Of a DNA stretch of 64,000 nucleotides, positions 1 to 32,653 are shown one piece after another. The notes under the pieces are model-generated. The model had not been told where the DNA came from. It saw only the letters and a list, made by a program, of their open reading frames with translations, and ran no database searches. The stretch lies in NCBI GenBank assembly GCA_015075645.1, contig JABTUF010000007.1:300501-364500 (forward strand). Direction: 5' to 3'. A program made the position numbers and the translations under genes. This stretch comes from Burkholderiales bacterium (GTDB lineage: Bacteria; Pseudomonadota; Gammaproteobacteria; Burkholderiales; Casimicrobiaceae). The stretch's first letter is position 1. The number at the start of each line of letters is the position of its first letter.

Positions 1-2465
1 TAGTTGATGACGTAGTCGCAGTCCTGCAGGTTCTGGCCTTCCGAAATGCAGTCGGTGCCGATGAGCAGATCGATCTCGCGCGACTCGTCCGGGCAGATGA
101 CGGCCTTGTCCTTGGAATGCGGCGAGAACAGGGTGAGCAGGCCCTGGAAGTCGTAGCCCTGGCGGCTGCCCGGCATGTGGCCCAGGGTGGAGTGCGGCGC
201 ATCGCTGCCGGTGACCTTGGCGCAGTGCACCTTGTGCTGATGCAGCAGGGGCTTGGCCAGATGGTCGTAAAGATAGGCGGCGGTGTCGGCGAAGGCGGTG
301 AAGATCAGCACCTTGCGGTTGCCGGGATTGATCGGTGAAGCCAGCTTGCTGGCGATCCTGGGTTTTCAGGTGTTGCAGCTTGGCATCGTCGCCCGGCGTG
401 ACCTTGGCCATTTCGGCCAGCAGCGCATCGATGAGGGCCAGGTCCGCCCGCAGATCGCGTTCCCAGGAGGGCAGATCCATGTCTTCGAGGTTGATCTGCA
501 CCTTATTGCCGATGGTGGCGTCGCCGGGCAGCGGGAACTCGTCGTCCTCGTACTCGATATCCTGAAACGCGGCGGTGACGTCGGCAAACGCGCCGGCCGC
601 GCCGGTCTGCCTGAAGCCGGCGATCTTCTCCAGGGCGTCGCGGTGGCAGCGTTGCAGGCTCTGCGAAGGTCAGGCGGAAGGAATGGACGGAACTTTCCAG
701 CCGCTTGAGCAGGTTGGTGGTCATCAGCGCCTGCAGGCTGCGTTCGCGGTCGACCTGCTTGAGCGTGCCGCCGCCGCTCGACACCTCAGTGTCGTACAGG
801 TCCTCGTACTTCTTCAGCCGACTGGGCAAGATGTAGCTGACCGGGGCGTAGACGGCGAGCTTGAGCCGGGACAGTTGCTCGAAGATCTCGTTGAAGCCCA
901 TCACGTCGACCCGCTCGGTCAGCGGCCGATGGAATGACAGAGGTTTGCGGCGCTCCGGAAAGTGGCCGATGTCCTTGGTGTCGTAGAAGGTCTGGATGTG
1001 CTTGCGCGAGCGCGCGATGGTGACGCTATCGAGCAACTCGAAGAAGTCGAAGTCCAGCGCGTCAAGGATGGCGCGTGCGGTGCGCTGCTCTGGCGGCAGC
1101 TTGGCCCAGACGTTGAAGGCGGCCTGGGCGCGGGCGGAAGATGCCGTCGATGTCGCGTTCCGTGCGCAGCTTGTTGTCGAGTGCATCGCTGTCGCCCTCG
1201 TAGGCCAGCGCCAGCTGGTTGCGCAGGTCGTTGAAGCGGTTGTTCACCGGCGTGGCCGAGAGCATCAGCACCTTGGTCTTCACGCCCTCGCGGATGACCT
1301 TGTTCATCAGCTTCTGGTAGCGCGTTTCCCTGTCCTTGAAGACATCGTTGTTGCGGAAGTTGTGCGACTCATCGATGACGACCAGGTCGTAGTTGCCCCA
1401 GTTGATGCGGTTCAGCGGTGTGCCGAACGACTCCCCGCTGGTACGGCTCAAGTCGGTGTGGCACAGGACGTCGTAGTTGAACCGGTCGCGCGCGAAGATG
1501 TTGGTCTTGAGGTTGCGGTTGTAGTTGAGCCAATTGTCGGCGAGCTTCTTGGGGCAAAGCACCAGGACGGATTTGTTTCGCAGCTCGTAATACTTGATGA
1601 CGGCCAGCGCGGTGAAGGTCTTGCCGAGGCCGACACTGTCGGCGAGGATGCAGCCGCTGTAGGTTTCCAGCTTGTTGATCAGCCCGGTGGCGGCATCGCG
1701 CTGGAAGTTGAACAGCTTTTGCCAGATCAGGCTCTGCTGGTAGCCCGTGCGGTCGTTGGGCAGCACGTCCTCGCTCACGTCTTCGAGGAACTCGTTGAAG
1801 ATGTTGTAGAGCATCAGAAAGTAGATGCTCTCGGGCGAGTTCTCCTGATAGACGGAGGCGATGTGCTCGCAGATTTGCGAGGTCACGTCTTCCAGCTTCT
1901 CGGCGTCGTGCCAGATCTGGTCGAACAGGCTCAAGTAGGTGGCCGTGAACGTCGGCTCGTCCAACTTGTTGACCAGATTGGAGACGGCGTTGCCTTGCTG
2001 GTAGCCGAGATCCACGGCCGTGAAACCGTGCAAGGGCATGTAGGCGATATCGCCACCTGCCGACTTCACGCAGGCAAACGGCTGCATCGGAGCCTTGCTG
2101 CGATTGCTCTTGAACGTGGCCTTGCGGCGCAGCCAGTCAGCGCACTCCTTTGCGATGGCGCGCTGGTTAAGTTTGTTGCGCAGCTGAATCTCGAAGTCGC
2201 TCCCGTAGAGGCTGCGTTCGCGGTCGAGCTTGGGGATGTGGAATCTCGCGGCGCTCCTGAGAATCTTGTCGGTCACTTCGTCGGCGACAAAGGCGGGAGC
2301 GGTGAAGATGAAGTTCAGTTCGTCGATCCTTTCCAGCTCGGCCTTCAGCGCTTCGAACGCGTACATCGAGAAGCAGGATGCCGCGACCTTCAGTCGGGCG
2401 CCCGGCTTGAGCGTTTGCTTGAGATCGTCACCGAGTAGGCGGTTGATGTTGTCGATGATTTCCAT
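1..2465 (-). pseudogene. SNF2-family helicase with N-terminal PLD-like domain; 3' end runs off the window; three reading-frame breaks
   Basis: ORF 1062..2465 carries ADSVGLGKT, VVIDESHNFRN and LSATPVNN helicase motifs. The protein continues in other frames: ORF 503..1186 (AAFNVWAKLPPEQR...LESSVHSFRL); an unlisted frame ~360-660 (DIEYEDDEFPLPGD...AKLQHLKTQ); and 1-359 (NRKVLIFTAF...LLIGTDCISEGQNLQDCDYVINY). Shifts lie near 1135, 660 and 359. Confidence 0.8.
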
Positions 2466-2668
2466 CAGTGCTCATCCGGCTTCTTCTTGTTGTGGATGCT
2501 CGCGGCGATCCACTGATCCAGCTCCACACGGCGGAAGCGCCAAGTGCCCCCTAGCTTGAACGCTGGAATCTCGCCGCTTGCTGCTAGGCGATAGACCGTC
2601 CGCTTCCCTGCTTTCAGGAACACCGCGACCTCGTCGATGGTGAGGATCTCGTCTGGCTGCTCGCCCAT
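2465..2668 (-). CDS. excisionase-family (MerR/AlpA-like) helix-turn-helix DNA-binding protein
   Basis: 67-aa ORF with LTIDEVAVFLKAGKRTVYRLAASGEIPAFKLGGTWRFRRVELDQWI. Its stop overlaps the helicase start at 2465, which indicates translational coupling. Confidence 0.75.
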   Translation of the reverse strand: MGEQPDEILTIDEVAVFLKAGKRTVYRLAASGEIPAFKLGGTWRFRRVELDQWIAASIHNKKKPDEH

Positions 2669-3283
2669 CTAATCACCCGCGGGAAGCGGAACATGGGTTG
2701 GACGCCTGCGCATATTGTCGCAGCTGGGCATGATCGTGCAAACTTGGCAAGCCTTGGCGAGGAACGGACAGCTCGCTTTGGTGAGGACGACACGAAGGGA
2801 CCTGAGGGCCCTGGCGTCGCAAGGCGAAGACCAAGATGAGGCCTTCTATCCACGGCCGCGCGATCGGCGCCTCTAACGCAAGACTCGCGCGGCGGTGGGT
2901 AAGCCGCCTGTTCGGACCGACGTTCATCGTGCCGTCCGCACTGCTGACGGGTTGGGCAACTCTGCAGCCGACGGCGCTCTGCCCCAGTCGACCGCTGCGG
3001 TTGCATCGACGCAATCGTTGGCGCAGAGTCGTCGCGTTCGCGCTGGCTGAGTCAGCCCGGCTGATGCCCGTCACCGCATCGCCCCAGCCCGCTCGCGCGG
3101 GCACCAGAGCCGGCCACATCTCCTGAAACCCGGCGGCCGAGAAGGCCTGGAGATACGCGTCAGGCTTCGGCGACGAAGCGCCTGCACTGCCGCAGTCGAT
3201 CGTGCGAGACCGTAGCGGCGTCGATCGAGCAGCCTCTGCTGCAGCTTCGGCCGCGCCCTGTCCCAGCACCACCTGCGCCAACC

Positions 3284-3322
3284 GCGTCGTCACTACGCGG
3301 CGCCAGCCAGTAGTGACGACGC
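3284..3322. repeat. perfect 13-bp inverted repeat GCGTCGTCACTAC / GTAGTGACGACGC with 13-nt spacer
   Basis: Read directly from the sequence at 3284-3296 and 3310-3322. It lies in a ~1 kb stretch without a credible ORF. Confidence 0.6.
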
Positions 3323-3740
3323 GCACGCTGCCCCAGCGCACGTGCGGTTTGCCGGGGCTGTCGCAAGTGACGGCCCCACGTGACGGCCTTCCTGGCGCGT
3401 CAAGACCTCGGACCGCGCAACGTGGTCCGCACCCCGCCCGCTCCCCGCGGGCCTTGTGAGCCAGCGCCGCCCGGCGCACCCAGAGCCCTGGGGCAAGGGC
3501 TCACCCGATGGATCGCCTTCCCGCAGGAAGCGCCATCGGTGCCAACGCCGCGTGCCGCGGCGGCCAGCAATGACTCGGCACGAAACGGGAGTGGTGTCCC
3601 GTGTCCCTCGTGGTTCCCGCAGCGCTTCGGCGCCCGGGACGGACAGAAACACTGACCTGACCGACCAAACACCAGCGACAGCGAGAGATGACAACCGAGG
3701 GGCAGCCGACAGGACGAGGAACGATGCCAGCAGCAGCCGA

Positions 3741-4605
3741 ATGCGCAACCTGAACTACGAGCTGAAGCAGCTGTGCCGTCGCAACCGCGACGGCAGCTTC
3801 GCGACGCAGCGCGATCGCGAGCGCGTGCTCGACCTGGTAGCCAGTCAGCTGCACGACATGGGCTACCGACACATGGCCGCGGCAAGCCTCAAGCCCAAGC
3901 ACGTCGAGCGCCTGGTCGAGCGCTGGCAGGCGGAAGGCCTGGCCGTGGGCACGATCAAGAACCGGATGGCGGAGCTGCGATGGTGGGCCGAGAAGATCGG
4001 CAAGCAGAACGTCATCGCGCGCGACAACGACCACTACGGTATCGGCCACCGGCAGTACGTCACCAACGTCAGCAAGGCGCGCGAGCTGAGCGGCGGTGAG
4101 CTGGCCAGGATCACCGACCCCTACACGGCGATGTCCCTGCGGCTGCAGGCGGCCTTCGGGCTACGGCGGGGCGAGTCGATCAAGATCCGGCGGAGTGGGC
4201 CGATCGTGGCGACCGGCTGGCGCTCAAGGACACCTGGACCAAGGGCGGGCGGCCGCGCGAGATCCCGATCCGCAACGCGGAGCAGCGCCAGGTGCTCGAC
4301 GAGGCCAAGGCGCTTGCCGGCAGGGGCAGCCTCATCCCGGCGGAGCGCAGCTACGTCGAGCAGTTGCGGCGCTCGAGTACCAATGCGCGGCCGCCGGCGT
4401 GCACCGCATCCACGGCCACCGCCACCAGTACGCGCAGACCCGCTACCGCGAGCTGACCGGGTGGCCGGCGCCGGCCGCCGGCGGGCCGCGCTCGCGAGAG
4501 CTCACGCCCTCGCAGCGCGAGCTCGACCGCGAAGCCCGGCTCACGATCAGCCAAGAGCTCGGCCACGAGCGCGAACAGATCACGGCGGTGTACCTCGGCC
4601 GGTGA
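3741..4605 (+). pseudogene. tyrosine recombinase (phage-integrase family), two frameshifts
   Basis: The N-terminal part is in ORF 3456..4700, starting at MRNLNYELKQLCRRNRDGSF...GLRRGESIKIR. The middle part is in a third frame (PAEWADRGDRLALKDTWTKGGRPREIPIRN...SYVEQLRR). The C-terminus is in ORF 4096..4605 (EYQCAAAGVHRIHGHRHQYAQTRYRE...HEREQITAVYLGR). Shifts lie near 4190 and 4368. Confidence 0.7.
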
Positions 4606-4747
4606 CTCTCTCTATTGGATTGCGGACTTTGGCCGGTCGTGACGGGTGCAATCAGATCGTTGTGGCGCACACGTCGGGCAACCCGCATGCGGACGTTTGA
4701 CGTCTGAGCTGCACATTGAGCGCCACAAAACACGGCGCTCAGACCGC

Positions 4748-5490
4748 TCAAGCTGGCATCCCATCCCACGATTGCCCGTTCAGTTCGCGCCCGTGCGCCT
4801 TCTTCGAGCGCTTCTGCCTGTCGGCACCCCCGGCACCCCATTGCTTGAAAAAGAAAGCAACGTCCGCTTCGTCGAGCACTGACGGCGCACGCCTCTCCTG
4901 CCCCACCAGCGCGCATTGGCGCGCGCGCGCCCTGATTCGCCGCCGACGATGACCCAATGAATGTCACTTGAGGTCTATTCGGCCTACGTCTTCCAATAGC
5001 GGTTCCACGGATAGAAAGCGGATCGTCGCGTCTACTTCACGCAGGACGTCAATGCGAGGGACTCCAATCGCTTCACGCGATTCTCGACCGAGACGCCTTC
5101 GCTGTATTGGCGGCACGCGCCGAGTACGGCAGAAGTCGCGCATGCGCTCGGCGCGCTTGGTCAGCACTTGGAAGGTATGCCAATGCGCCTGCGCGCTATG
5201 ACCTGGAAGACACTCTCGACATGGTCGAACGGCACCTTCTCGTGGAAGAGGTCGGACATCGAGTTGACGAAGTAGACCGTCGGCTTACGTCGTTCCAGCG
5301 TGGGCTCAGCCAAACGCTCGGGCATCAATGCGAGCTTGAACCCGCGCTCGTAGCCCTTCAGGCCCATTGCCTGCAGGCGACGAGCCATGCCTTCGGCGTA
5401 GCAGTTCTTGCAGCCAGGCGAGACCTTTGTGCAACCGATGGTCGGATTCCAGGTCTGCTCGGTCCACTCGATGCGACTATAGGTGCTCAT
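4748..5490 (-). pseudogene. DUF5131 (phage Gp37/Gp68) family protein with three-Cys motif; three frame breaks
   Basis: The gene starts MSTYSRIEWTEQTWNPTIGCTKVSPGCKNCYAEG at the ATG at 5490. It continues as AHWHTFQVLTKRAERM...RFLSVEPLLEDVGRIDL (ORF 4964..5167), then [13 protein letters not shown]...RRQC in an unlisted frame, then [13 protein letters not shown]...WDGMPA (ORF 4748..4957). Shifts lie near 5197, 4967 and 4885. Confidence 0.75.
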
Positions 5491-5492
5491 GC

Positions 5493-6675
5493 TCAGTCTC
5501 CTGTTCGTTGGAGGCGGTCGCCATCCTTGCAGTGCAGCGGCTTGTCGGGCGGCGGCGGCTCGCATCAAGTTCCGGACGCGGCCGGCGTCGATCAAGCGCA
5601 CCAGCGACGCCTGTAGGTCGCCGGGGAACCAGTCCTTGTCTTCCAGGATGTCGGCGAAGGCCTTTTCGTCCACGCGGCGCTCCCCGGCAGCGAGATAGTG
5701 GAGCCAGAAATGATCGACGTCATCAGCACTGGCGTGACCGGCCTCAGTATCAACAGCAGTGCCGAACATGTCCTGGACTCCGGTTTCGCGCTCGCGCTTG
5801 GCGTCGCGGAGTTCAGCCCGCACCTGCTTTTGCACCAAGTCCACGGTTTCCGAAATCGTCATGAACTCGATGACGCCCAGTGGATGTGTAGTGACATAGA
5901 CGAGGTGGTACTTGGGCCGTTGTTTTTCGCGGTCTAACACGCGCACATAGGCGGAGCGGGGCGGAAACTGCTTGCGAGTGGCGTCGACACACACCCTCTT
6001 CAAATTGCCGCGGTAGGCCTTCAAGATCGCATGTTCACGCTGTGCTGGCGTCATGTCATCGACGCTGATGGCATCGCCAAGCAACTCTGCCATTTCGCTG
6101 CGCCACTCGCGCATCGACATCGTGCGATTGACGAAGTCGTACATGAAGTTGATCAGAAACTCAGAGCGCGGGCGCTCGAGCAGCGGCTTCAGCGTACCGA
6201 CGCCGACATCCTTCCAGCCCTTTGGGTCGATAAAGAAGAAGGTAAACGCGTCTTTGCCCGCCCATTGCAGGACGTCGGCGCGTTTGGCAACGAAGTCGCC
6301 GTTCCATGCCTCGGCGTGCATGCCGCTGGGGGTGTTGTCGGCCAGATAGGCTTGGAGCCTGGCGAAGGGCCCAGGCTCCTTCTCGATGTACAGCGCGCGG
6401 ATCGTCGCAGAGACGCCGTTCCGGCCGAGCTTCTGCCGCACGACATCTAGCGTTTGCAGCGAGATCGCGATGGACGTGCTCTTGAGATCATCGGAGACGT
6501 CACCCCAGGGCCCCGCGAAGCAGTCGACGTATCGGAGTTCGATGTGCCCGCCCTTCCGGGCTGCGCCGCCCACGATGAAGAACAGCTTCTCCAGGTAGCC
6601 CTTGAGCAGCTCATGCTTGATGAAGGCCTGCTCGCGCCCGTCATAGGCGTCAGGCACCGCCCCGATTTTCGCCAA
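5493..6675 (-). CDS. three-Cys-motif partner protein TcmP-like (as sequenced it reads through into the DUF5131 gene)
   Basis: Part of ORF 5161..6774, with motifs KHELLKGYLEKL, RYVDCFAGPWG, FFFIDPKGW and EFLINFMYDF. The proposed start is TTG at 6675, with GGAGG 4 nt upstream. An alternative frame ends ...DKPLHCKDGDRLQRTGD with TGA at 5493-5495, 2 nt before the DUF5131 ATG. This suggests a 1-nt indel in the GCC-repeat run near 5540. The family call is from memory of TIGR04474. Confidence 0.55.
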
Positions 6676-6691
6676 GGTGCCTCCGTTGACG

Positions 6692-6709
6692 ACCGAACGA
6701 TCGTTCGGT
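6692..6709. promoter_or_regulatory. perfect 18-bp palindrome ACCGAACGATCGTTCGGT (CGAAC-N4-GTTCG, Cheo-box-like); candidate operator of the LexA-like repressor
   Basis: Read directly from the sequence. It is centred in the 45-bp divergent spacer between the TcmP-like start (6675) and the LexA-like start (6721). Confidence 0.5.
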
Positions 6710-6720
6710 AGCGTAAGCGA

Positions 6721-7294
6721 ATGGATGACGACGGTCAATATCTTGATGCACTGCGCGCCTACTACGCCCAGCACGGCGTCCTTCCGTCGTACGCCACCAT
6801 CGGGCGGCTGGTCGGCATGTCCTCCAAGGCCTCTGTGGCCGAGATGGTTGAGCGCCTGAAGCGAGCGAGCTACTTGGACAGCACACCGGACCGCCGGCTA
6901 CAGCCCGGACGCCGATTCCACGACCGTGAAGTAGCTGACTATGTACGTGCTGGCCAGCCGAGTTCCAGCGGCGACATCCTCACAGAGACCCTGAGCCTTG
7001 ATTCCTACCTGACGAGAAATCGCCGCAACACAGTCCTGGTGCGCGTAAAGGGTGACTCAATGACCGAAGCGGGCATTCTGGAAGGCGACATTGTGGTGGT
7101 GACGCGCCGGCCCGATGCTCGTGCAGGCCAGATCGTCGTCGCGATTATTGACGGTGAGTTCACGCTCAAGCGTCTTGCTTTCGAGCGCGGTCGGCCCGTG
7201 CTACGCGCGGAGAACAGCGTCACCCGCCGCCAGGCCGCGCGGCGGATTCGAAGTCTTTGGGGTTGTGGTGGGATTGGTTCGCCGATACCCGTAG
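6721..7294 (+). pseudogene. LexA-like S24-peptidase self-cleaving repressor; one frameshift near 7215
   Basis: ORF 6721..7485 has an N-terminal LexA-type wHTH, an AG cleavage context (YVRAGQP), the catalytic VKGDSM and FTLKRL. The expected C-terminus FEVFGVVVGLVRRYP, with its stop at 7292-7294, lies in the +1 frame. Confidence 0.7.
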
Positions 7295-7384
7295 GTGGGC
7301 AGAGTCGGCGCAGCGGTCACATCAAAGTGCGCGCCACCAGGGTTGGCCACGTGATCGCCGGGCTACCCGTCAGCAGTACTGACA

Positions 7385-7424
7385 GAAAAGAAAACGCCCG
7401 GGCAACCGTGAGGCTGCGCCGGGC
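7385..7424 (-). terminator. rho-independent terminator downstream of the DUF932 gene
   Basis: The minus strand reads CGCCCGG-N17-CCGGGCG followed by TTTTCTTTTC, 12 nt after the stop at 7436. Confidence 0.5.
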
Positions 7425-7435
7425 GAAGGGGAGGA

Positions 7436-8499
7436 CTAGGCGGCGTGGGCCACCTCCTTCCAGTCGCCGGGGGCCAGCTCGATGAGCTTGCCGCCGAGCG
7501 CCTCGAGCTCGGTGGCACGGTCGTAGTCGTCGACGTCCTGCGAGAAGTGCGTGACGGCGTTGACCAGGCCATAGGCGCTCAAGTCGCCTTCGACGATGAG
7601 GTGCCGCAGCACGCCGGCCCGCTCGGTGTCGTTGAGCGTGTAGCGGTTGGCCAGCACCTCGACGGACTTCACCGGGTCGCCCGTCAGACGGATGTCGCGC
7701 GTCTTCTGCAGCTTCTGCGCGACCTGCCGGAACGTCGCTTCGGAGACGGCCGCCTCGACCACGTCGCGCACCTTCAGGAAGAAGGCCCGGTCGTCGGCGG
7801 CGAGGGTGTCGTCCCTGAACACCTGGACCGACTCCGCTTCCGTCGTCAGCGCGCGCCCGACGTGCGTCTTGCGCAGCGCGTGGTCCGACGCGATCAGACC
7901 GTTCCTGCACACCAGCCGGAAGATCAGCGGCTGCACCGAGAGCGTGCCGCAGCCGACCTCCGAGTTGGTGATGACGATGCCGGCCTGGACGATGTCGCCG
8001 GGGGCGACTTCGAACTCGACGCGGGGCGTCACGACCTTCAGGTACATCTTCGTCTCGGTCAGTTCGACCGATTCGAAGCGGGCACCTTCCAGCCGCTGCA
8101 GGATCGGCAGGACGTTCTCCGCAAGATCGAAGTTGTCCAGCCGGCGGTAGCGGTCCGACAGCACCGCCCTCACCTGCCCGTCCAGCGTGCGCAGCATCCG
8201 GCGATCGCCGTCGGACTGCAGCCAGGTGTTGACGTTGCGATCGAGCAGCGCGGGCTGCTCGGTGCGCATGCGCTCGAAGTAGGCGAACGGGATCTTGAGC
8301 TTGTCGGCGAGCTGCCGGCGGCCAGACCCGTGACGCCGTATTCGCCGTCGCCCTGGCGGGAGTCGACGATCAGCTTGAGGTCGCCGCCCTCATCGGTACG
8401 GCACTGCAGGAACGACGAGGGCACGACCAGGTCGCGCTTGGAGGAGATCTGGCGCTCGAGTTCGCGGGCCAGGTCGACGAGAGTACGTCCGCTCTTCAT
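7436..8499 (-). pseudogene. DUF932 domain protein; one frameshift near 8320
   Basis: The C-terminal 277 aa are in ORF 7436..8269. The N-terminus [20 protein letters not shown]...GEYGVTG is in ORF 8170..8553, starting at the ATG at 8499 with a GGAG upstream. The connecting peptide RQLADKLKIPFAYFERM is in the frame of the downstream ORF. Confidence 0.75.
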
Positions 8500-9227
8500 G
8501 GTGAGACTCCATAGAGGTTGCGGAGACGGCCCCCGCCATGCGGGGATGCACATCCCCGCTGGGGTGAAGAACCGGACCGGGGGATCCCGATCCGGATGGG
8601 GTGCGCGACGGAAGTCGCGCGGGGTTCACGGGCTACAACAAGGCCGCGTTCGGCGAACGAGACGGCGTTGCTGCCGGCGATCACGATGTGGTCGAGCACG
8701 CGGATGTCGACCAGGGCCAGCGCCGAACGCAGCGACTGGGTCAGGAACTCGTCGGCCCGGCTGGGCTCGGCGACACCCGACGGGTGGTTGTGCGCCAGGA
8801 TCACGGCCGCTGCGTTCAACGCCAGCGCCCGCTTGACCACTTCACGCGGGTACACGCTGGTCTGCGTGAGCGTCCCCCGAAACATTTCCTCGGGCGCGAT
8901 GACCCGGTTCTGTGCATCGAGGAACAGCACCATGAAGACTTCGTGGTGGCGCTCGGCCATCGTGATCCGCAGGTACTCGCGCACCGCGGCTGGTGAGGCC
9001 AGCATGTCCCGCTCGCGCATCGTCTCGGCCAGAGCGCGACGGACCAGTTCCCTGGCCGCCAGCAGCTTGGCTCCGACGGACGACGACGGCACCTGCTGTG
9101 CCACTTCCGCGTTCAGCAGCCGCGACAGGCTGCCGCTCGCTTCCTTCAACAGATTCGCTGCCGTTCGCGGCCCCACCAGCGTGCTGAGCAGGGCGGCGTC
9201 GGACATCGACTCGATCGATCCGCACAT
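8496..9227 (-). CDS. radC: RadC-family JAMM/MPN-domain protein (3' end probably extended by a 1-nt insertion)
   Basis: The ORF contains HNHPSG and SRADEFLT...LDHIVI...VSFAERGL. A stop that would give the usual ...ERGLL end sits one frame over at 8633-8635. The 45-aa tail as sequenced overlaps the DUF932 start. Confidence 0.75.
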
Positions 9228-9315
9228 GGAGTTCTCCTTCGAATGACGAATGGGGAACTCCTCCCCCAGGGAGCGAGCTCCCCGGGGGATGGATTGAGAC
9301 CGACGATGCCGGCGG

Positions 9316-9757
9316 TCAGAACGGAACGCTCTCGGCTTCGTCCGCGCTCGCCGGTTGCGGCACGTCGATCGACTTGCCGTTGACCTTGGCGAACTTGATA
9401 CGCAGCAGGCGCCCCTTGATGCTGACGCCGGGCTGCCCCTTCCTGTCGCCCTTCTCGAAGGTGAACAGTTCGGGGTAGATGTCGGCGATCCGGAAGCCGA
9501 TGATCACGGCCTTCTCGGCTGCGACATCGTCTTCCAGGCGCTTGACGATCGCCTGAGCGTCAGCACCGCTGACACGGCAGTCGAACTTCGTGTAGCTGAC
9601 GTCACTGTCGCTGCCGCGGAGGGCTGCGACGGTGCAGGCCAGGAACTCCTGGCCCTTCTTCGGCTTCACGGTGCGCACGCGATTGAGATAGCCGACGCCT
9701 TCGACGTGCAGGTTGAAGTACGACGGCTGGCTGCTGGCTTGAGGATGACTCGGACAT
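9316..9757 (-). pseudogene. DUF3577 / STY4534-type ICE protein (SSB-like); N-terminal frame break
   Basis: The body SYFNLHVEGVGYLNRVRTVKPKKGQEFLAC...[13 protein letters not shown] is in ORF 9316..9930. The strong start (AGGAGG-N5-ATG at 9757, MSESSSSQQP) is one frame off, implying an indel near 9730. Confidence 0.6.
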
Positions 9758-10260
9758 GATGGCCTCCTATGACATGGAACACATGGAAATGGAGAGACCA
9801 TCCCCAGGACGGGGATGGGACTCCCCGGCTGGGCAGAAGCACTGACGAAATCTCCGGCCTTGCGGCCACCGGCCTCAGGAGATCTGACCGGTTTCGGGCG
9901 ATGCGTAACGGGCATCAACCGGGCTGACACAGCCAGCGAGAGACTCGGTCGCGCACGCAGCGATCAACGGCACGCGCAAGAAATCGATGCGGCATGCTGA
10001 TCGCGGATCCGATCGGGATGCAACTGCAATGCGGACACGATCGAGCGGCGCGCCGACTCCGTCGACGGCGAGCGTGATCTCGACGAATGCGCCATCCGCC
10101 CCGGCGGCGCGAGGCGACGCGTGGCATCGACGCGATAGCCGCGGAACGACAGCTGCGCGGCGCCGGACAGCGCGGCGACGGCGAGCGCCTCGCGCGCAAG
10201 CACGCAAAGCATCGCCCACTCCGGCGCGCTGGGGTGCCGAGCGCGCGCACGGCGCGTTCG

Positions 10261-11201
10261 TCACAGCAGCTGCCCTCTCGCCGACGCTGGCGGCGGCTCG
10301 GCGTCCGCGCCGAGCGAGACCTGCTGCATCAGCCGCAGTTCCGCCGCGGTCGGGGTGACGCGCCGCTGCGAGTGCCGCGGCGCCTCCTCACCGGTGAACA
10401 CCTTGCGCGGGAGTTCGCCGAACAGCGCGACCGCGGCGCGGACGCGCTGCCGCGCCGCATCGTCGGCGCCCGGGAGGAAGTCGCGCCGGCTCAGCGGGAG
10501 CATTTCCTCGCGCAACAGGTTGCGCTCCCAGCGGATCGGCTCCAGGAACAGCGCGCGCAGGCCGCGGCCGATGGCGCGAATCTCGGCCCGGCCCGCCTCG
10601 TCGCTCATGCGGTCCTTGAGCACGAGGGTCTTGACCATCCGCACGTGGTAGTCGAACTCGACGATCGCCTCGGCCGTCGCGTAGCCATATGGGCTGCGAA
10701 ACCCCAGCTCCACCGTGACGGGGCTGCGGGACGCGAGCACGGACAGTGCGAGCCCTCTACGGCGAAGCCGCTCGAACTCCGCCTCGCGCGCTTGGATGAC
10801 CTGGCCCATCTGCGCGCGGATGCCGGACAACGACTGGTAGACCCGGATCAGGATCCAGTCGGCGTAGGGGTTGTCGTTGGCCGAGAGGTACCAGATCGCC
10901 TTCAGCACCGCCGCGAAGCGCCGCCCGCCGGAATCGCCGGTGCGTTGCTCGCCGGATCGGCGGCGCGGCCGGTGAACATCCGGTACGCGTCCTGCGTGTG
11001 CAGGGTCATCGCGTCTGGCGTCTCGTCGACGAGCTGGCCCGCGGCGGGGCCGCGGTCCTCGCCGGCGCCGACTCGCGTAGCCATCGCGGGCTCGGCGTCG
11101 GTGACCGGGCCGAGTGAGGAAGGTGCTTCTTGTGCCGTCATGTCGGCCTCCGTGTGGGGGTGATCTCGCGTCGAATCGACGAGCGGACGCGACGTGCTCA
11201 T
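10261..11201 (-). pseudogene. PFL_4669-family ICE protein (TIGR03761-like); one frameshift near 10920
   Basis: The N-terminus is in ORF 10902..11201 (...MTLHTQDAYRMFTGRAADP...). The body is in ORF 10261..10908 (RRFAAVLKAIWYLSANDNPYADWILIRV...). The start overlaps the upstream stop (ATGA at 11198-11201). Confidence 0.6.
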
Positions 11202-11665
11202 GTCGGCCTGCCGGTGTTCATGCGCGTCTTGAGCTCGCCGAGCATCTGCCTGACCTTCTCGCGCTGGGCTCGTGCCCTGGCCTGGTACTCGGGCGTGGCG
11301 CGCTCGGCCGCGAGGCGCCGTTCCTCGGCTTCGCGTTCACGACGCTGAGCGGCGTCCTGCTGGCGCCGCGCGCGCGCGGCGGCCACGCGGGGGCCGAGCT
11401 CAGGGACGAAGCTGCCGGCGTCGGCGCGCGCGATGAGGCCGCGCAGGTACGCGACCGGGCTGCTGCGCACGCCGCCCATCTGCAGCCGGCCGGCAAGCTC
11501 GTCGAGCAGGGCCTGGGCGCGATCGCCGCAGGGGCGGAGCAGCACGCGTGCTGCCTGGCGCTCGTCCGGCAGCATCTGCTCGGGGAAGATCAACTCGCCA
11601 CCATCCACCACGGCGACCGGCGGATTCGCCGGCGGGGCTGGCGTTCTGTGGTTGTAGTGCTTCAC
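11198..11665 (-). CDS. conserved ICE-backbone hypothetical protein with Arg/Glu-rich C-terminal helix
   Basis: 155-aa ORF with a GTG start. It contains GELIFPEQML...AQALLDELAGRL...VAYLRGLIARA, and its position in the backbone operon is consistent with a backbone gene. Confidence 0.45.
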   Translation of the reverse strand: MKHYNHRTPAPPANPPVAVVDGGELIFPEQMLPDERQAARVLLRPCGDRAQALLDELAGRLQMGGVRSSPVAYLRGLIARADAGSFVPELGPRVAAARARRQQDAAQRREREAEERRLAAERATPEYQARARAQREKVRQMLGELKTRMNTGRPT

Positions 11666-12620
11666 CTGTACTGTGATTCATAAGAAGCGCGGCGCTTTGG
11701 GGTGAACCGTGTTCGCGGGTCGGGCCGAACTGTCGTGGCGGATTCGGCGTGGCAAGGCTGCGGGGATGCCACAGTCTTGAATCGCTCTTCGGTGGATCGT
11801 TGGCTGCGTGAACGTCTCGGTCTGGCTGCACGCCGCGCAGGTCGGCGTCGCCTGCCGGTGCGACCTCGTCCGTCAGCAGTGCCAGCAGGCAATCGAGCCG
11901 GATGCGCGCGACCAGGCTCGGCGGAATGCCGCGCAGGCACTCCTCCCAGAGCCCGGCGCGCACGAGGTCGCGGCGCGCCGTTTCCTGTTCGCGCCGGGTG
12001 AGCCCGAGCTCCTCGAACCAGCGCGCCGCCGAGCTGACGATCCACTGGTCGAGACGACGTCTGACCTGCAGCCGCGTGAGGTGCAGCGCGCGCGACAGCA
12101 TCAGCCCGGCATGCACGCCCCCAGCGACATCGACGAGCGTCCGGTGGAAAGCCACCGACGGGCCGAGCAGTTCCGCGAGCACGAGCTGGTCGTTCCAGTC
12201 CATCGCTTGCGACTGACCGGCGATGCGATCGGCGAGCTGCGCGCCGAGCTCGTCGAGCCTCAACCTGAAGTGCAAGCGCGCGGGAATGCCCATGCGCTGG
12301 TCTTCGAGGAGAGCTAGGCTGCGCAGCACCTCGCGCGCGTTGGCCTGTTCCTTCGCCGACAAGCCGGTCTCCATCGCCCATTGCTCAGCGGTCTTGTGGA
12401 ACCATCCGCCGGTCTCGGCGATGTCCCGACCGTGGCGCGTCCAGTAGATCGACTGCGACAGCAGGAGCGCCGCCTTCACGCTCGCAGTGAGGTCCACGAG
12501 TCGACGATGGAATGCGATGTGCCGGCCCAGCAGCGGCCAGATGAGCGACAGCGGTGCCGCGTCGACGACCGCCGACGCGGACCGTGAGTCCACGTGCTCA
12601 CGGCGCGCGTCTTCAGACAC
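11400..12620 (-). CDS. ICE/pathogenicity-island replication-protein-like (STY4526/YPO1902 type), two tandem domains; 3' end uncertain
   Basis: It carries two repeats of the motif LLLSQSIYWT...GWFHKTAEQWAMETGLSAKEQANAR...RMGIPARLHFRLR. The ORF tail runs about 265 nt into the next gene. A different frame stops at 11662-11664, overlapping the next GTG start (GTGA), so the true end may be near 11662. Confidence 0.5.
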   Translation of the reverse strand: MSEDARREHVDSRSASAVVDAAPLSLIWPLLGRHIAFHRRLVDLTASVKAALLLSQSIYWTRHGRDIAETGGWFHKTAEQWAMETGLSAKEQANAREVLRSLALLEDQRMGIPARLHFRLRLDELGAQLADRIAGQSQAMDWNDQLVLAELLGPSVAFHRTLVDVAGGVHAGLMLSRALHLTRLQVRRRLDQWIVSSAARWFEELGLTRREQETARRDLVRAGLWEECLRGIPPSLVARIRLDCLLALLTDEVAPAGDADLRGVQPDRDVHAANDPPKSDSRLWHPRSLATPNPPRQFGPTREHGSPQSAALLMNHSTGEALQPQNASPAGESAGRRGGWWRVDLPRADAAGRAPGSTRAAPPLRRSRPGPARRACRPAADGRRAQQPGRVPARPHRARRRRQLRP

Positions 12621-12641
12621 GGCAGATCTCTCCGCGGACTT

Positions 12642-13016
12642 TCACCGGCCCGCCGCTCCGGCATGGACCTGCAGTGCGCGCCAAACCGCGTCGGCGCGAA
12701 CTCGGAACCAGAGCTTGGCCGGCATGCCGACGCGGCGTTCTTCGAGCAGTCCCGAGCGCCGCAGGGCGCGCCGCGCGGTCTCCTGTTCCCAGCGCGTGAG
12801 CCCCGTCTCCTGTGTCCACTCCTCCTGGGAGCGAATGAACCACCCGTCGGCGGAGGCTTCCAGAGACTGGCTGGTCCAGATCGCCTGCGACAGCATCAAG
12901 GCCGAGGTGACGCCTCCGGTGATCGGCACGAGGCACCGATGAAAGCTCACCGGGACGTCGAAGACCTCGAGCAACAGCTGCGGCGTGATGCCGAGGCTCT
13001 CCATGCGCGCGTTCAT
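12642..13016 (-). CDS. single-domain paralogue of the STY4526/YPO1902-type ICE protein
   Basis: 124-aa ORF with LMLSQAIWTSQ...GWFIRSQEEWTQETGLTRWEQETARRAL...RVGMPAKLWFRV. ATGA overlap with the upstream gene. Confidence 0.55.
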   Translation of the reverse strand: MNARMESLGITPQLLLEVFDVPVSFHRCLVPITGGVTSALMLSQAIWTSQSLEASADGWFIRSQEEWTQETGLTRWEQETARRALRRSGLLEERRVGMPAKLWFRVRADAVWRALQVHAGAAGR

Positions 13017-13555
13017 GCGTCGGCCTCGAATTCACGCACGACCGCCTCCAGCACGGCGATCGGCACGTGCTGGAACTCCTGATGCAGCCGGTAGTAGCGG
13101 ACACGAGGCGCCGGATCGGCGATTGCCCGCCACGCCTGGTAGATGCGCTCGCGCGTCGCGTAGTCGGGCAGCCGCAACCGACCGGCCGGTCGCCTGGCGT
13201 CCAAGTCGCGGCGTCGCTTGAGCGTCAGCTTGCGCCGGAGCTTGAAGAGCGCGCTCATCAGGTGCGTCGACGCGCCGTGGCGGATGAAGTACGTCTCCAG
13301 CGCCTTCGCCTCGTTGACCAGGGCCACGGCGCGCAGCCCCGCCTTGAGCGCTGCGCCATCGAAGGCGACGCCGATCGTCAGACTGCGCATCGCGGCGAGT
13401 CGACCGAGATCGACGGCCGAGAGCTGCCGAAGATGGGCCAGCTGCTCCATCTCGATGCCGACCGCGTGAAGCTCGTCCAGCGCGGCGTCGGCCAAGCGCA
13501 CCGTCACGTGGTTGAGGAGGACCAGCCGTACCTGGGCGTCCTGCAGCGGGAGCAT
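13013..13555 (-). CDS. DUF2857-like ICE protein
   Basis: The start MLPLQDAQVRLVLLNHV lies inside ORF 13013..13765. Its ATG overlaps the parB-like stop (TGATG at 13553-13557). The family call is from memory. Confidence 0.45.
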   Translation of the reverse strand: MLPLQDAQVRLVLLNHVTVRLADAALDELHAVGIEMEQLAHLRQLSAVDLGRLAAMRSLTIGVAFDGAALKAGLRAVALVNEAKALETYFIRHGASTHLMSALFKLRRKLTLKRRRDLDARRPAGRLRLPDYATRERIYQAWRAIADPAPRVRYYRLHQEFQHVPIAVLEAVVREFEADA

Positions 13556-14907
13556 CACGCCTCCTCCGCTGCCGAAGCCGTCGTGCCCGCGGCACCCGGC
13601 TGCCGGCGAAGACCACCCGATCGCCTGGCACAAGCCAGCAGTTCCCAGAATGCCGTTGCCGACGGGTCGTCGGGATCGACGAGCCATTGCAGGAACGCCG
13701 GCGCCGCCGCGTTCGACGGCGCCGCGTCGGGCTCGAGCTGGCCGAGAAGCCCCGCAAGCAGACACCAGGCGCGATGGCGCGCCGGATGCTCCGCGTCGCC
13801 ATCGGCGAGCGTCGCGATGCGCAAGCCGGCTGCAGACTGCAGTTCGTGATCGACAACGCCGGCGATGCCGACGGTCTCCGCAAAGCGCCTTGCCCGCGTC
13901 AGCAGTTCGTCTGCCTCCGTGCCATCGCCGTCGGCAGAGGGGTCATGCGTCGAAGGCAAGGACGCGCCGGTAGCAGGAGTGCCGGCCACCGGCGCCGATG
14001 TACTCACCTGAGGCTCGCGGCCGCCCTTCGACCGAAGTCCCATGCGAAGCGAGTCGATGGGTTCGCCGAGGTGATGCGCCAAAGCGACTTCGCAGGCCTC
14101 GCAGGCGGCGGAGACGCTGAAGGCGCCGGTGTGCGGGTACTGCTGCGCGATCCGTCGAAAGACGGGTTCGAACACCTGGCCGTAGAGGTCGTCCTCCGTG
14201 ATCGAGCTTCGCGACTGGGCGTAGCGCTTCAGCGCGTTCAGTCGCGGCTGCATCGTCTTGACGTCGAGGCCGGAGAGATCGGTCACCGCCTCGCCGATGG
14301 TTCGCAACCGCTCGGTGGCGAAGAGATGCAGACCGAGCGTCGCGGTGTTCACCGCCAGGCCCAGCGCGTGGAGCGCGTCCTCCAGCGGCCGCAGCGTCAG
14401 GGTGCGGCCCTGCTCCCGTTCGAGACGAGACTTGAGCGCGACGATCCCGCACGCCTTGTCCCAGAAGGTCATCTCGCCGCGCTGTTCGTTCTCGATCAGG
14501 TGCGCGGTGAGGACGTGGCTCTCCGATCGCCACGGCCGAAACAGCACCACCAGCTTTCGGAAGCGCGGATCGCGCGTCTCGGCCCACAGTTGCCGCAACG
14601 CCAGCAGCCGCGTGTTGCCGCCGGCCTCGACTATGAAGTGCGACTCGCCGGGGCGGCGCGTCACCGTCAGCGGACTTCGCAGGCCACTGGTGCGGATCGA
14701 CTCCTTGATGTCGTCGAACTTCGCGTTCGACGCGCGCCGCGGGTTGTGCTCGTAAGGCTGGATCTCGTCGACGGCGAGCTCGATCTGCGATTCCGTTCGC
14801 GGATCACTCTGACCGGCGAGATCGCGGGCGTTGTTGCCCGGGTTTCCGACCCGCAACGACTCGGCCACCAGTCTTCGGCGCTCGTCGACCGACACCTTGC
14901 CGTTCAT
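13555..14907 (-). CDS. ParB-like protein of the PFGI-1-class ICE ParB family (TIGR03764-like)
   Basis: 450-aa ORF with a ParB/Srx-fold N-terminus: IQPYEHNPRR...IKESIRTSGLRSPLTVTRRPGESHFIVEAGGNTRL. It is coupled to parA by a 4-nt overlap. Confidence 0.7.
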   Translation of the reverse strand: MNGKVSVDERRRLVAESLRVGNPGNNARDLAGQSDPRTESQIELAVDEIQPYEHNPRRASNAKFDDIKESIRTSGLRSPLTVTRRPGESHFIVEAGGNTRLLALRQLWAETRDPRFRKLVVLFRPWRSESHVLTAHLIENEQRGEMTFWDKACGIVALKSRLEREQGRTLTLRPLEDALHALGLAVNTATLGLHLFATERLRTIGEAVTDLSGLDVKTMQPRLNALKRYAQSRSSITEDDLYGQVFEPVFRRIAQQYPHTGAFSVSAACEACEVALAHHLGEPIDSLRMGLRSKGGREPQVSTSAPVAGTPATGASLPSTHDPSADGDGTEADELLTRARRFAETVGIAGVVDHELQSAAGLRIATLADGDAEHPARHRAWCLLAGLLGQLEPDAAPSNAAAPAFLQWLVDPDDPSATAFWELLACARRSGGLRRQPGAAGTTASAAEEA

Positions 14908-15749
14908 GCCGACCGCTCCTCTGTACGCGAGTCGCCGGCGTGAACGCCCTGCAGGCTGGGAATCAGTTCCCAGGCGAGCTGGTGCATCACCGTGGACGCG
15001 CTCGGCATGACGCCGTCGCGTCGCGGCTCGTGCCGGTGCACCGGGATCCGCAGCGTGGCGGCCTCCTTGTAGGCCTTGGCGTGCGGCACGACGGTGTCGA
15101 GCACCGACACCCTGCCCTTCAGGCGGATGAAGTCCTCGCGGATGCCGCTCGCGATCAGGCGGGCGTCGGCCGTGCGGTCCTGCCGGTAGATCACCGCCTT
15201 TACCGGCCCGAGCGTGGCACCCAGGGCGCTGCCCGGCTCCAGCCGGTCGAGCAGTTCCATCGTGCCGTCCTTGAACTCGCGCGCCGATAGAACCTCCGGC
15301 GTGATCGGCGAGACGAGGATGTCGGCAGCCATGAGCGCCGCGTCCTGCAGCGGGCCGATGGCGCCCTGCGTGTCGATCAGGACGCAGTCATAGGCGTTCG
15401 CCACGACGGCGGCCTGCAGCGCGAAACGCAGTCGGAAGCCGCGGTCGATCCGGTTGAGCAGCCAGTTTGGAAGATGGCCCTCCGGGTCGTCCGACACGAC
15501 GATGTCGAGGTTCGGGAAGACCGTCGCCGTGATGCACGCGGCGGTCACCTCGCCGCGCAGGATCACCTCGGTGAGTCCGGCCGCCGGCTGCGGCGTCGCC
15601 AGTGGGAAGTACTTCGACAGCGAGGGCTGGACGTCCGCGTCCACGAGGAGGACGCGCAACCCCATGTCGGCGAGCAAGGCGCCGAGGTTGGCCGTGAGCG
15701 TCGTCTTGCCGACGCCGCCCTTGGTGCTGGTGACGGTGAACTTGATCAT
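14904..15749 (-). CDS. parA: ParA/Soj-type partition ATPase
   Basis: 281-aa ORF with the deviant Walker A motif TSTKGGVGKTT. Confidence 0.85.
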   Translation of the reverse strand: MIKFTVTSTKGGVGKTTLTANLGALLADMGLRVLLVDADVQPSLSKYFPLATPQPAAGLTEVILRGEVTAACITATVFPNLDIVVSDDPEGHLPNWLLNRIDRGFRLRFALQAAVVANAYDCVLIDTQGAIGPLQDAALMAADILVSPITPEVLSAREFKDGTMELLDRLEPGSALGATLGPVKAVIYRQDRTADARLIASGIREDFIRLKGRVSVLDTVVPHAKAYKEAATLRIPVHRHEPRRDGVMPSASTVMHQLAWELIPSLQGVHAGDSRTEERSA

Positions 15750-15780
15750 CGATTCCGTGCCGATTCAGGTCGGTCATCAG

Positions 15781-15813
15781 GCATACGGAATCGCGTGCAA
15801 AAGTGTCGGGCTA
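15781..15813. repeat. inverted-repeat copy A (GCATACGGAATCGCGTGCAAAAGTGTCGGGCTA)
   Basis: Matches the reverse complement of 16511-16543 at 27 of 33 positions by hand alignment. It lies in the sigma-parA spacer and overlaps the sigma-gene stop codon. Confidence 0.6.
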
Positions 15814-16401
15814 CTCCCTCAGATAGTCGCCAAGCCCCTGATCCGCGAACACCCGACGGATGCGTTTGATCTCCTCGTACAGGGTGCCGCGCGGGATTCG
15901 GAGCCGCTCGGCGGCCTCTTTGATGGTCAGTCCCTCCTCGCCGAGCATCTGGCACAACTGCCGCTGGATCGGTGTGAGCCGAGCCAGGGCGCGGCCAATG
16001 TCGATGCGTGCGTGCTGACGATCAACGACACCGGCTTCGTCCTGCTGGGCCGACTCGTCGTCGGCCAGCAGGTCGGCGAGCGTCAGGCCATCGTCCGAGC
16101 CGTCGAGCGCAGCATCGAGCGACAGTGCAACCTGCTCGCCCGCGCGCTTCTCGGCCGCCTGCTCGCGGATCAGATCCGTGAGTTTGTTGCGGATCACCTG
16201 GGCCATATAGGCCGTGGGCGGTGCCGCCGGATCGGGTGCGAGCTTCCGGCGCACCACGATCCAGTGCGCCAGGCACTCCTGGACCAGATCGTCGAACTCC
16301 TCTCGGGCGAGGCTTCGCGATCGCCTCCTGAACTCGCCCACCAGCTTTTTCGTGACCGCGATCTCCCATCGCTGGAGACCCTCTCCTGCCTTGAGCGCCA
16401 T
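15811..16401 (-). CDS. ECF-like sigma-70 family protein
   Basis: 196-aa ORF. It has a region-2-like segment (FDDLVQECLAHWIV) and a region-4 HTH (LTPIQRQLCQMLGEEGLTIKEAAERLRIPRGTLYEEIKRIR). Confidence 0.6.
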   Translation of the reverse strand: MALKAGEGLQRWEIAVTKKLVGEFRRRSRSLAREEFDDLVQECLAHWIVVRRKLAPDPAAPPTAYMAQVIRNKLTDLIREQAAEKRAGEQVALSLDAALDGSDDGLTLADLLADDESAQQDEAGVVDRQHARIDIGRALARLTPIQRQLCQMLGEEGLTIKEAAERLRIPRGTLYEEIKRIRRVFADQGLGDYLRE

Positions 16402-16405
16402 GGCT

Positions 16406-16431
16406 CTCCCCGTCGGTTGGCTGACGGGGAG
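16406..16431 (-). promoter_or_regulatory. perfect 9-bp stem that sequesters the Shine-Dalgarno sequence of the sigma-like gene
   Basis: The minus strand reads CTCCCCGTC-AGCCAACC-GACGGGGAG-AGCC-ATG. The GGGGAG arm ends 4 nt before the start codon at 16401. Confidence 0.35.
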
Positions 16432-16510
16432 GAGATCGAGCGGGGCTCAGCGGAAGGAAAAGAGCGACAGGCGACCTAATTCGTAGGGCCGACGAAGTAG
16501 CGGGGAGACG

Positions 16511-16543
16511 TATCCCGACACTTTTGCGCCGGATTCCGTACCC
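16511..16543. repeat. inverted-repeat copy B (TATCCCGACACTTTTGCGCCGGATTCCGTACCC)
   Basis: Partner of 15781-15813. It lies about 110 nt upstream of the sigma-like start. Confidence 0.6.
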
Positions 16544-16899
16544 GGATCCCAAGGGGCTTCGATAGATCTCGAAGGGCGGCGACGCATGGCGACAGACGCC
16601 AGGACGCCAAGGCGATGTCCCCCGGGGTTGCGAAGCGCCACGTCGGTGGCGGCTACGCGAGGTCGAAGGTGTGAAGAGTCGGTCGAGGGTTACCGCGCGG
16701 CACCCAGCGGGGCGTTACGCAGGCCTCTCGGCCAAGAACGGGGGTGCGAATGAAGCGCGGGAATCAGTTCACGGAAGTGGTGCGGGCCGTCGGCACCGCG
16801 AAGCAGCAGGCGACGCCTGCTGCACTCGACGGGGTCATCAACGACGACCGGGACGCCGACCGCAATGGCGCCGCGGCACTTCGGCAGGCGGCGCGTGAG

Positions 16900-17226
16900 A
16901 TGGAGCCGCCGGGCGCGTTCGACGCGCGAGCGATCCGGGATCTGCACAAGGCAGCGCCGACCGACCCCAAGGGACTGCGTCGCACGATCCGCCGCAGCGA
17001 GCTACGTCAGATCGTCCCGCTGGCGGATTCGACCATCTACGAGCTGGAGCGCCGCGGCGAATTCCCGCAGCGGTTCTACCTCACGACACGCTGCGTGGTG
17101 TGGGACCTGGCCGAGGTGATGGCCTGGCTGCAGAGCCGTCGGCAGGCCGGGAGCAACGGGGTGAAGAAGGCGGCGGTGCCGGACGTTCGAAGGAGGATGC
17201 GCCGGACGGTCGGCGCCAAAGGCTAG
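16900..17226 (+). CDS. AlpA-family phage/ICE transcriptional regulator (start uncertain, ORF opens at 16744)
   Basis: The C-terminal half of ORF 16744..17226 reads RRSELRQIVPLADSTIYELERRGEFPQRFYLTTRCVVWDLAEVMAWL. Confidence 0.6.
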   Translation: MEPPGAFDARAIRDLHKAAPTDPKGLRRTIRRSELRQIVPLADSTIYELERRGEFPQRFYLTTRCVVWDLAEVMAWLQSRRQAGSNGVKKAAVPDVRRRMRRTVGAKG

Positions 17227-17415
17227 TGTTGCGATTCCCGCTAGCGACCATTCCGCTCACCACAGCACCCAGAGCGATGACCCTGAGACGCGAACCGGCG
17301 CCATCAGCGGTGCGATGGGCCGCAGTGCGAGTTACAGCGGACGGCGAAGGTAGACCTGGGATCGGCAGGGGACGGCCAACGGCAGACATTCGCGCCCGCG
17401 CAGGCAAGCAGTCAG

Positions 17416-18930: not shown

Positions 18931-18933
18931 GGT

Positions 18934-20057: not shown

Positions 20058-20074
20058 ACGAAGAAGACGCATCC

Positions 20075-30211: not shown

Positions 30212-32653
<2,442 letters not shown>

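Follow-up and report, generated by a model that had tools for sequence, protein, structure and literature searches.

Frame breaks clustered in one block of an integrative conjugative element in a Burkholderiales genome record are most likely local consensus errors

The question raised by a 64,000-nucleotide (nt) stretch of a Burkholderiales bacterium genome record (GenBank assembly GCA_015075645.1, contig JABTUF010000007.1, positions 300,501 to 364,500) is whether the broken genes at its left end are dying or whether the record is locally wrong. The whole 64-kb stretch is referred to below as the window. Judged by its gene content, the affected block is part of an integrative conjugative element (ICE) of the PFGI-1/ICEclc type; no fewer than 26 small insertions and deletions (indels) that occur in the window only lie there between 357 and 11639, and ten ICE genes are broken by them. 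Because the lesions are missing from near-identical independent copies at every checkable site, local errors of assembly or polishing are their most likely source. We put at roughly 0.85 the probability that they are localised consensus errors, made in assembly or polishing, in an element with many variants, and not marks of dying genes.

Frame breaks and their localisation

The G+C content of the window is ~62–76%, which makes the G+C content of third codon positions (GC3) a strong indicator of the reading frame. Frames were detected by a GC3 frame plot together with a codon-usage Viterbi model trained on the long open reading frames (ORFs) of the window. Intact homologues were drawn from 80 ICE loci of GTDB genomes and from two JGI contigs, L081 and L082, and indels were pinpointed in multiple alignments of the window with six or seven relatives. 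The frame plot and the Viterbi model showed same-strand frame switches without a nearby stop codon at 357/358, 666/667, 1135/1136, 4189/4190, 4365/4366, 8314/8315, and 10920/10921. For each gene, intact homologues mapped colinearly on the window and occupied two to four frames.

The 26 well-supported events comprise 13 with extra and 13 with missing bases, and their sizes range from 1 to 5 nt. They are located at 357, 664, 1132, 2244, 2255, 4190, and 4372; in the DUF5131 gene at 4872 (+2), 4893 (+2), 4917 (−1), 4928 (−1), 4968 (+1), 5067 (+5), 5098 (−2), 5191 (+2), and 5300 (+3, in frame); and at 5543, 5565, 7221, 7232, 8320, 8642, 9742, 9872, 10927, and ~11635. About half of the events change the run length of a 1–3-nt homopolymer (e.g., 4917, 4928, 5565, and 10927) and others do not (2244, 5543, 9742, and the +5 event at 5067). 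Differences at 3031, 3432, 3463, and 3724, in non-coding DNA, were omitted from the count, as were those at 10114, 10242, 10278, 11040, and 11071, which lie in variable patches; the patches 10100–10290 and 11025–11085 vary among the relatives. The indels at 3140, 8529, and 9857, seen against relatives at 87–89% identity, were rejected as natural since nearly identical contigs share them.

The initial annotation had listed 14 single-nucleotide frame breaks in the first 11.2 kb. Frame plots, intact homologues in several frames, and alignments showed that all 14 correspond to real events within ~20 nt, the one placed at ~5197 being the +2 event at 5191. The count of about 14 was nevertheless too low, as the pair 2244/2255, the DUF5131 events at 4872, 4893, 4917, 4928, 5067, 5098, and 5300, second deletions at 5565 and 7232, and the event at 9872 had been missed. 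Nor are these pure 1-nt indels, as had been stated: +2, −2, +3, and +5 events occur, as do ~26 clustered substitutions in the DUF5131 gene. The observation that the peptides on each side of a break are still conserved was borne out by the colinear mapping of intact homologues across the breaks. The annotation was also right about internal stops, since the frame-corrected segments of the left block contain none in frame and the only stops are those that the shifts create. ORF 11400..12620, which had been called merely doubtful, contains a true break, given that all six relatives have one 480-aa ORF over the corresponding stretch.

The left limit of the damaged block is set by the end of the window, not by an observed boundary. 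A gene for an SNF2-family helicase runs off this end, so the ICE, and possibly the damaged block too, extends past position 1. On the right, the six closest ICE relatives (~89% identity over 7438–17226) showed that window-only indels cease at 11639; the next two, both intergenic, are at 16559 and 16618. The proposed confinement to the left 11.2 kb thus stands insofar as no window-only coding indel was found in 11.66–64 kb, but the block reaches ~11.64 kb. With all 26 events in 18% of the window, the probability would be ~6e-20 if events were independent and uniformly spread; as they are clustered, this value is only an order-of-magnitude guide.

All same-strand frame switches in 11.2–64 kb fall on the stop codon of the upstream gene and are ordinary gene junctions. 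The same was found for the chromosomal frame switches flagged by a naive gene model (e.g., 41588), all of which are at a stop codon and were rejected. Over the 11,184 nt of 27308–38491, the window differs from a public metagenome-assembled genome by 4 substitutions with 0 gaps, and 29417–44179 differs from another such genome by 15 substitutions, again with 0 gaps. Logan sludge-metagenome contigs over 12–32 kb and 44–64 kb matched in pieces of up to 5.9 kb with 0 gaps and 0–4 substitutions; the few indels in Logan contigs are minority variants in single runs or intergenic. Against two other contigs, gaps are limited to two strain-variable patches, 27169–27307 (a convergent gene junction) and 29389–29416 (between two tRNA genes). 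These gap-free comparisons, with frame switches at stop codons, agree with the earlier report of no breaks in the housekeeping genes of the remaining ~41 kb. Substitutions of the chromosome relative to other strains amount to only ~0.04%.

In the two strain-variable patches, substitutions are dense and the indels sum to zero; further variation at 44870 and 60185 consists of a 7-nt indel between genes and, in a single run, a +T variant. This variation is ordinary polymorphism and provides a baseline for natural indels. Over 23300–64000, contigs from over 20 metagenomes of sludge, wastewater, biofilm, and bioreactors (2017–2025, many studies) match the window at 99.8–100% identity, with 89–97% of k-mers found, which looks like a widespread, nearly clonal Burkholderiales population.

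The lesions in independent data and the mutation spectrum

Independent short-read comparators were contigs of ≥96–98% identity from runs X1–X5, which come from four different studies, aligned at several scales. The results showed that 22 of the 26 events are absent from these contigs and from the JGI contig L081. The other four are absent from all relatives at 80–94% identity and coincide with GC3 frame switches. Contigs span the sites 357, 2244/2255, 4372, 5300, 5543, 5565, 7221, 7232, 8320, 9742–9744, 9872–9873, 10927–10929, and 11631, and at every one of them the contig version restores the frame. At 5543, 5565, and 7221, three or four runs show the frame-restoring version at their full depth. 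Among the X1–X5 contigs and the JGI contig, no independent contig carries any lesion of the window. Where a site is not spanned, the alignments end there; in three runs, for instance, they break off at 8637, five bases short of the extra base at 8642. At coarse scale the window version appeared to have depth support at 8319, 10929, and 11631; at finer scale, this came from contigs whose alignments end at the site, and it was discarded.

In the JGI contig L081, the genes for the LexA-like protein (191 aa), TcmP (394 aa), and DUF5131 (243 aa) are intact, and the sample of L081 also contains the chromosome of this organism (contig L084). Over 4337–7438, L081 and the more distant L082 share a version that differs from the window at every indel and at 32 of the 34 substitutions. 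Comparison with intact homologous loci, which the initial annotation had proposed, gave a uniform result: L081, L082, and the GTDB relatives lack the breaks.

The ICE block was found in many wastewater and sludge metagenomes, and the scan of GTDB representative genomes that yielded the 80 related ICE loci gave a best match of 97% protein identity. The highest share of block k-mers in any run was ≤66%. An exact 49-nt pattern (5971–6019) had 0 matches in JGI metagenome contigs, searches restricted to Nanopore or PacBio runs returned no matching run, and a plasmid collection held only distant SNF2 homologues at ~80% identity.

Between the lesions, the block is 99.8–100% identical to contigs from other samples. 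A low-depth strain in X3 and X4 shows 0 differences to the window over contigs that total ~3.6 kb and span 17176–21609. From the same strain, a 2174-nt X3 contig over 5245–7417 shows 4 substitutions and 5 indel events, all unique to the window. An X2 contig of 558 nt, which covers the 2244/2255 pair, shows 0 substitutions and 2 indels. The indel to substitution ratio relative to the closest strain is ~1:1; in spontaneous bacterial mutation it is roughly 1:10. Substitutions on the window lineage at codon positions 1/2/3 number 29/12/83 in the left block (67% third) and 41/25/120 on the right (65% third). This unchanged codon-position pattern implies that, up to effectively the present, purifying selection acted on the broken genes as it did on the intact ones.

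Taken together, the ~1:1 ratio, the balanced gains and losses of 1–5 nt, the paired lesions 10–22 nt apart, and the substitutions beside indels form a pattern that reads as that of a noisy consensus, unlike that of selected spontaneous mutation. Decaying genes are expected to show nonsense codons and a lost third-position bias, and neither was found in the left block. Lesions of a decaying lineage should also recur in independent samples of it, and each near-identical contig that spans a site lacks the lesion. What was found instead are flanks identical to independent, accurate short-read sequences from which the lesions are absent, as expected of consensus errors. The preference of the initial annotation for a consensus artefact over decay is therefore supported, the lesions being confined to this record with no relaxed codon pattern and no nonsense codons.

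Genes of the block, element variants, and other features

The features of the window are listed in Table 1. Profile search identified the SNF2-family helicase, RadC, the STY4534-family (DUF3577) protein, the PFL_4669-family protein, and a PFGI-1-type ParB, and precomputed domains of intact homologues identified the DUF932 protein, the LexA-like S24 repressor, TcmP, DUF5131, and the tyrosine recombinase. ParB (TIGR03764) scored 189.9 bits against a cut-off of 143.75, and the STY4534-family replication protein (NF040584) 160.5 bits against a cut-off of 160. The PFL_4669-family protein (TIGR03761) scored 98.8 bits over profile positions 39–210 of 216, below the cut-off of 110.7 solely because its N-terminus sits in another frame. 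ParA at 14904–15749 is a member of a protein cluster that sources name ParA. A relaxase and a type IV secretion (mating-pair formation) module would be expected left of position 1, beyond the window.

Table 1. Coordinates of the damaged block, its genes, and the control region (ends as positions in the window)
Feature	Coordinates	Strand	Remarks
Error-rich block	1–11640		≥26 window-only small indels and clustered substitutions; right limit between 11640 and ~11660
SNF2-family helicase gene	1–2465	−	Truncated by window edge; residues 2–823 of 1099-aa homologue; 4 frames
Tyrosine recombinase gene	3741–4605	+	288 aa in L082; Phage_int_SAM_2/Integrase_1; 3 frames; missing bases 4190, 4372
DUF5131 gene	4748–5490	−	243 aa intact in L081 and L082; most damaged stretch; 2 or more frames
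TcmP gene (three-Cys-motif partner protein, 394 aa)	5496–6675	−	3 frames; missing bases 5565, 5543
LexA-like S24 peptidase repressor gene	6721–7294	+	191 aa intact; 2 frames; missing bases 7221, 7232
DUF932 gene	7439–8499	−	354 aa intact; missing base 8320; 2 frames
radC gene	8634–9227	−	Extra base 8642, three codons ahead of stop
STY4534-family (DUF3577) ICE replication protein gene	9319–9757	−	Extra base 9742
PFL_4669-family ICE protein gene	10264–11200	−	Missing base 10927; 2 frames
480-aa protein gene	11201–12642	−	Single ORF in 6/6 relatives; split in window by extra base ~11631–11639
Control region	11660–64000		Rest of ICE (parB, parA, cargo, integrase 21783–23078) and chromosome from guaA; 0-gap matches to independent contigs

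The SNF2 gene has extra bases at 357, 664, and 1132, for which homologue mapping puts the breaks at ~360, 664, and ~1133, and a compensating pair at 2244 (+1) and 2255–2257 (−1), 11 nt apart. In the DUF5131 gene, the ~26 window-only substitutions are packed next to the indels over 4795–5223, and a conserved 'GVSVENR' motif between 5098 and 5067 is legible in the wrong frame. As far as the first lesion, residues 1–370 of TcmP match P0001/L081 with 100% identity (homologue mapping puts the breaks at 5566 and 5545). Its two missing bases remove the stop codon and fuse the gene with that of DUF5131 into a 537-aa ORF, for which an exact database look-up returned no record. The last ~25 codons of the LexA-like gene are shifted (homologue mapping, ~7215), and the DUF932 gene is split after residue ~60 (8320–8329). 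The extra base in radC likewise costs the gene its stop codon, and the ORF continues to 8496. The STY4534/DUF3577 frame is shifted past codon 5. In the PFL_4669 gene, the N-terminal ~100 residues are in another frame (breaks at 10923–10929), and the differences at 11040 and 11051–11072 lie in a variable patch. The break in the 480-aa gene is the last one before clean sequence.

The missing base at 9872 falls in an intergenic, imperfect inverted repeat (9840–9900; …CCGGTCAGATCTCC…GGAGATTTCG…) upstream of the STY4534-family gene. The repeat is conserved in all six relatives and could be a candidate operator or origin-like site. The 480-aa protein of the relative L006 also matches window positions 12219–12977 at 35–44% identity (region 11826–13019). 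A 'W..H....EW..ETGL...EQ..AR..L' module recurs in this stretch and in the window's own copy of the 480-aa gene, the domain being repeated within and between two adjacent genes.

Upstream of the recombinase gene, ~0.9 kb (2847–3740) is 80–87% conserved in seven or more ICE variants. The homologous stretch of L082 has no called gene, the codon model gave no coding signal for the ~0.9 kb, and Rfam yielded no match; this DNA could contain a regulatory region, an origin, or an undescribed RNA. Rfam and repeat scans returned nothing relevant to the left block.

Variants of the ICE differ in structure. The DUF5131–TcmP–LexA-like module (4605–7365) is an insertion relative to many of them: low-depth X3 and X4 contigs join 4603/4605 straight to 7365/7366, and the closest GTDB relatives (L006, L004, L007, and L005) carry different DNA in the interval from the recombinase gene to the DUF932 gene. 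In contigs of X2 (depth 74) and X5, 11312 is linked back to 4557 across 13 unmatched bases, suggesting either a rearranged variant of the ICE or a short motif in common.

Further right, ARAGORN called a 93-nt tRNA-Thr (15687–15779, + strand) inside the parA coding region; Rfam gave it no support, and the call is probably spurious. An inverted repeat of 31 nt (87% complementary; 15784–15814 and 16510–16540) flanks a small gene at 15838–16404, which, from its translated sequence, we read as sigma-70-like. The putative integrase is a 431-aa ORF and adjoins guaA (23340–24959), with chromosome beyond; the matching gene in the ENA contig L083 has Phage_integrase domains. This ORF is the immediate neighbour of the 3′ end of guaA, the JGI contig L084 ends just past guaA, and L083 runs on into the integrase gene, which suggests that the ICE is integrated adjacent to guaA.

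Origin of the lesions and comparison with known systems

The existence of the lesions, their restriction to this record, their localisation, and the lack of a decay signature are observations; what we infer is the technical cause and, with it, the sequencing platform. The proteins of the window lie on an NCBI contig of 420,213 nt, and a contig of this length crossing an ICE with many co-existing variants suggests a long-read or hybrid assembly. Such an assembly would have spanned an element present as several nearly identical variants in the sample or the genome. Reads would not have been uniquely placeable in the left block, and short-read polishing may have failed or mis-corrected there, with small indels and adjacent substitutions arising during consensus construction or polishing; in the unique chromosome and the remainder of the ICE, polishing would have reached near-perfect accuracy. 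Many ICE variants do co-occur, at high depth, in comparable sample types such as sludge metagenomes, in line with the heterogeneity that the initial annotation had suspected. In X1, a comparable metagenome and not the source sample, two alleles of 5824–6140 are present at depths of 38 and 51. The breakpoints of ICE variants (loose ends) cluster at 10.9–11.4 kb, and this cluster could explain why a co-occurring variant would share only the left block. Errors in repeats are documented to survive short-read polishing of long-read assemblies where short reads are not uniquely placeable (PMC8812927), and frameshift-split genes are a familiar symptom in long-read metagenome-assembled genomes (10.1101/2021.08.23.457338; PMC9262707). 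If consensus errors are the cause, the breaks are not a biological feature, and this part of the ICE is most likely intact in the organism itself.

Several points weigh against this explanation. The ICE backbone at 11.7–17 kb is equally conserved among variants yet clean, so heterogeneity alone does not explain the position of the boundary. Error density is uneven, ~2% in the DUF5131 gene versus 0.2–0.3% elsewhere in the block (~tenfold). Only about half of the events are changes in homopolymer length, which leaves no clean platform signature by which a platform could be named. Finally, the comparators come from other samples and not from the source reads, and there is formal room for a single strain with real lesions.

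Such real lesions would mean that a burst of small indels in this strain's ICE copy inactivated ten adjacent genes, too recently for substitutions and nonsense codons to have accumulated. The lesions are after all present in the deposited sequence, the accuracy of the rest of the record implies an assembly that is generally well polished, ICE remnants that no longer transfer do decay, and all ten breaks would abolish function. Pseudogenisation of this kind would nevertheless need at least 26 indels in 11.6 kb against none in the neighbouring 52 kb, in a strain with so little chromosomal substitution. It would also need indels about as frequent as substitutions, far from the usual ratio, and several hits per gene, including deletion pairs 10–22 nt apart (5543/5565 and 7221/7232) and a compensating +1/−1 pair with 0 substitutions in 558 nt. 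The unchanged codon-position pattern and the absence of the lesions from every independent dataset speak against it as well, and we consider it unlikely. A real, one-off, localised indel burst in the replication and maintenance genes of the ICE (DUF932, radC, and STY4534) could conceivably stem from error-prone synthesis or repair of ICE DNA in transfer or replication; it would represent a mutational process not known from bacterial mobile elements, and appears very improbable here.

Natural mosaicism, in which recombination brought in the block from a divergent variant of the ICE and the 'indels' are normal differences between alleles, would fit the clearly mosaic structure of the ICE variants (loose ends and joints), the natural status of some indels relative to the 87–89% relatives (3140, 8529, and 9857), and the two patches that vary among relatives. 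It is hard to reconcile with a block nearly identical to other-sample contigs between the lesions, and with close and distant comparators agreeing against the window at the lesions, as L081 and L082 do. Moreover, the differences destroy conserved frames and offer no alternative in-frame sequence. We regard mosaicism as highly improbable. Programmed ribosomal frameshifting or transcriptional slippage could in principle bypass the breaks and keep the genes functional, and the conserved peptide on either side of the breaks is the only point in its favour, with nothing specific to recoding. The sites share no motif and have no slippery A/T runs, +2, −2, and +5 events are included, orthologues are unshifted and intact homologues lack such sites, and ten adjacent unrelated genes would all need the same device; recoding is effectively refuted. 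Localised consensus error is thus the explanation that we retain.

Taken at face value, the record would have ten ICE genes annotated as pseudogenes or as a fused protein (the 537-aa TcmP–DUF5131), and the ICE might be mistaken for a defective remnant. The sequence of 1–11.64 kb, and perhaps sequence further left, is unreliable for ICE comparisons, pseudogene counts, and protein databases. Were the lesions true, they would point to an unusual localised indel-generating process.

Among known systems, decaying ICE or genomic-island remnants (true pseudogenes) resemble the block in that several adjacent mobile-element genes are interrupted. Unlike them, the block has no nonsense codons, large deletions, insertion sequences, or relaxed substitution pattern, its lesions occur in no other sample, and its indel to substitution ratio is ~1:1. 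Another comparison is with the frameshift-split genes of long-read metagenome-assembled genomes (proovframe, 10.1101/2021.08.23.457338; Nanopore R10.4, PMC9262707), in which conserved genes are likewise split into consecutive frames by indels and the breaks are found against full-length homologues; the source here is, by appearance, also a long contig of a sludge bacterium. Errors in such genomes are normally genome-wide, whereas in the window 52 kb are clean and 11.6 kb affected. A further comparison is with the polishing residues in repeats described for Polypolish (PMC8812927), from which the window differs in that half of the ICE backbone is clean and only about half of the events are homopolymer-length changes. 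It resembles these residues in its small indels with occasional neighbouring substitutions, in its sharp boundaries, in the confinement of the lesions to a multi-variant element amid near-error-free unique sequence, and in their absence from short-read data.

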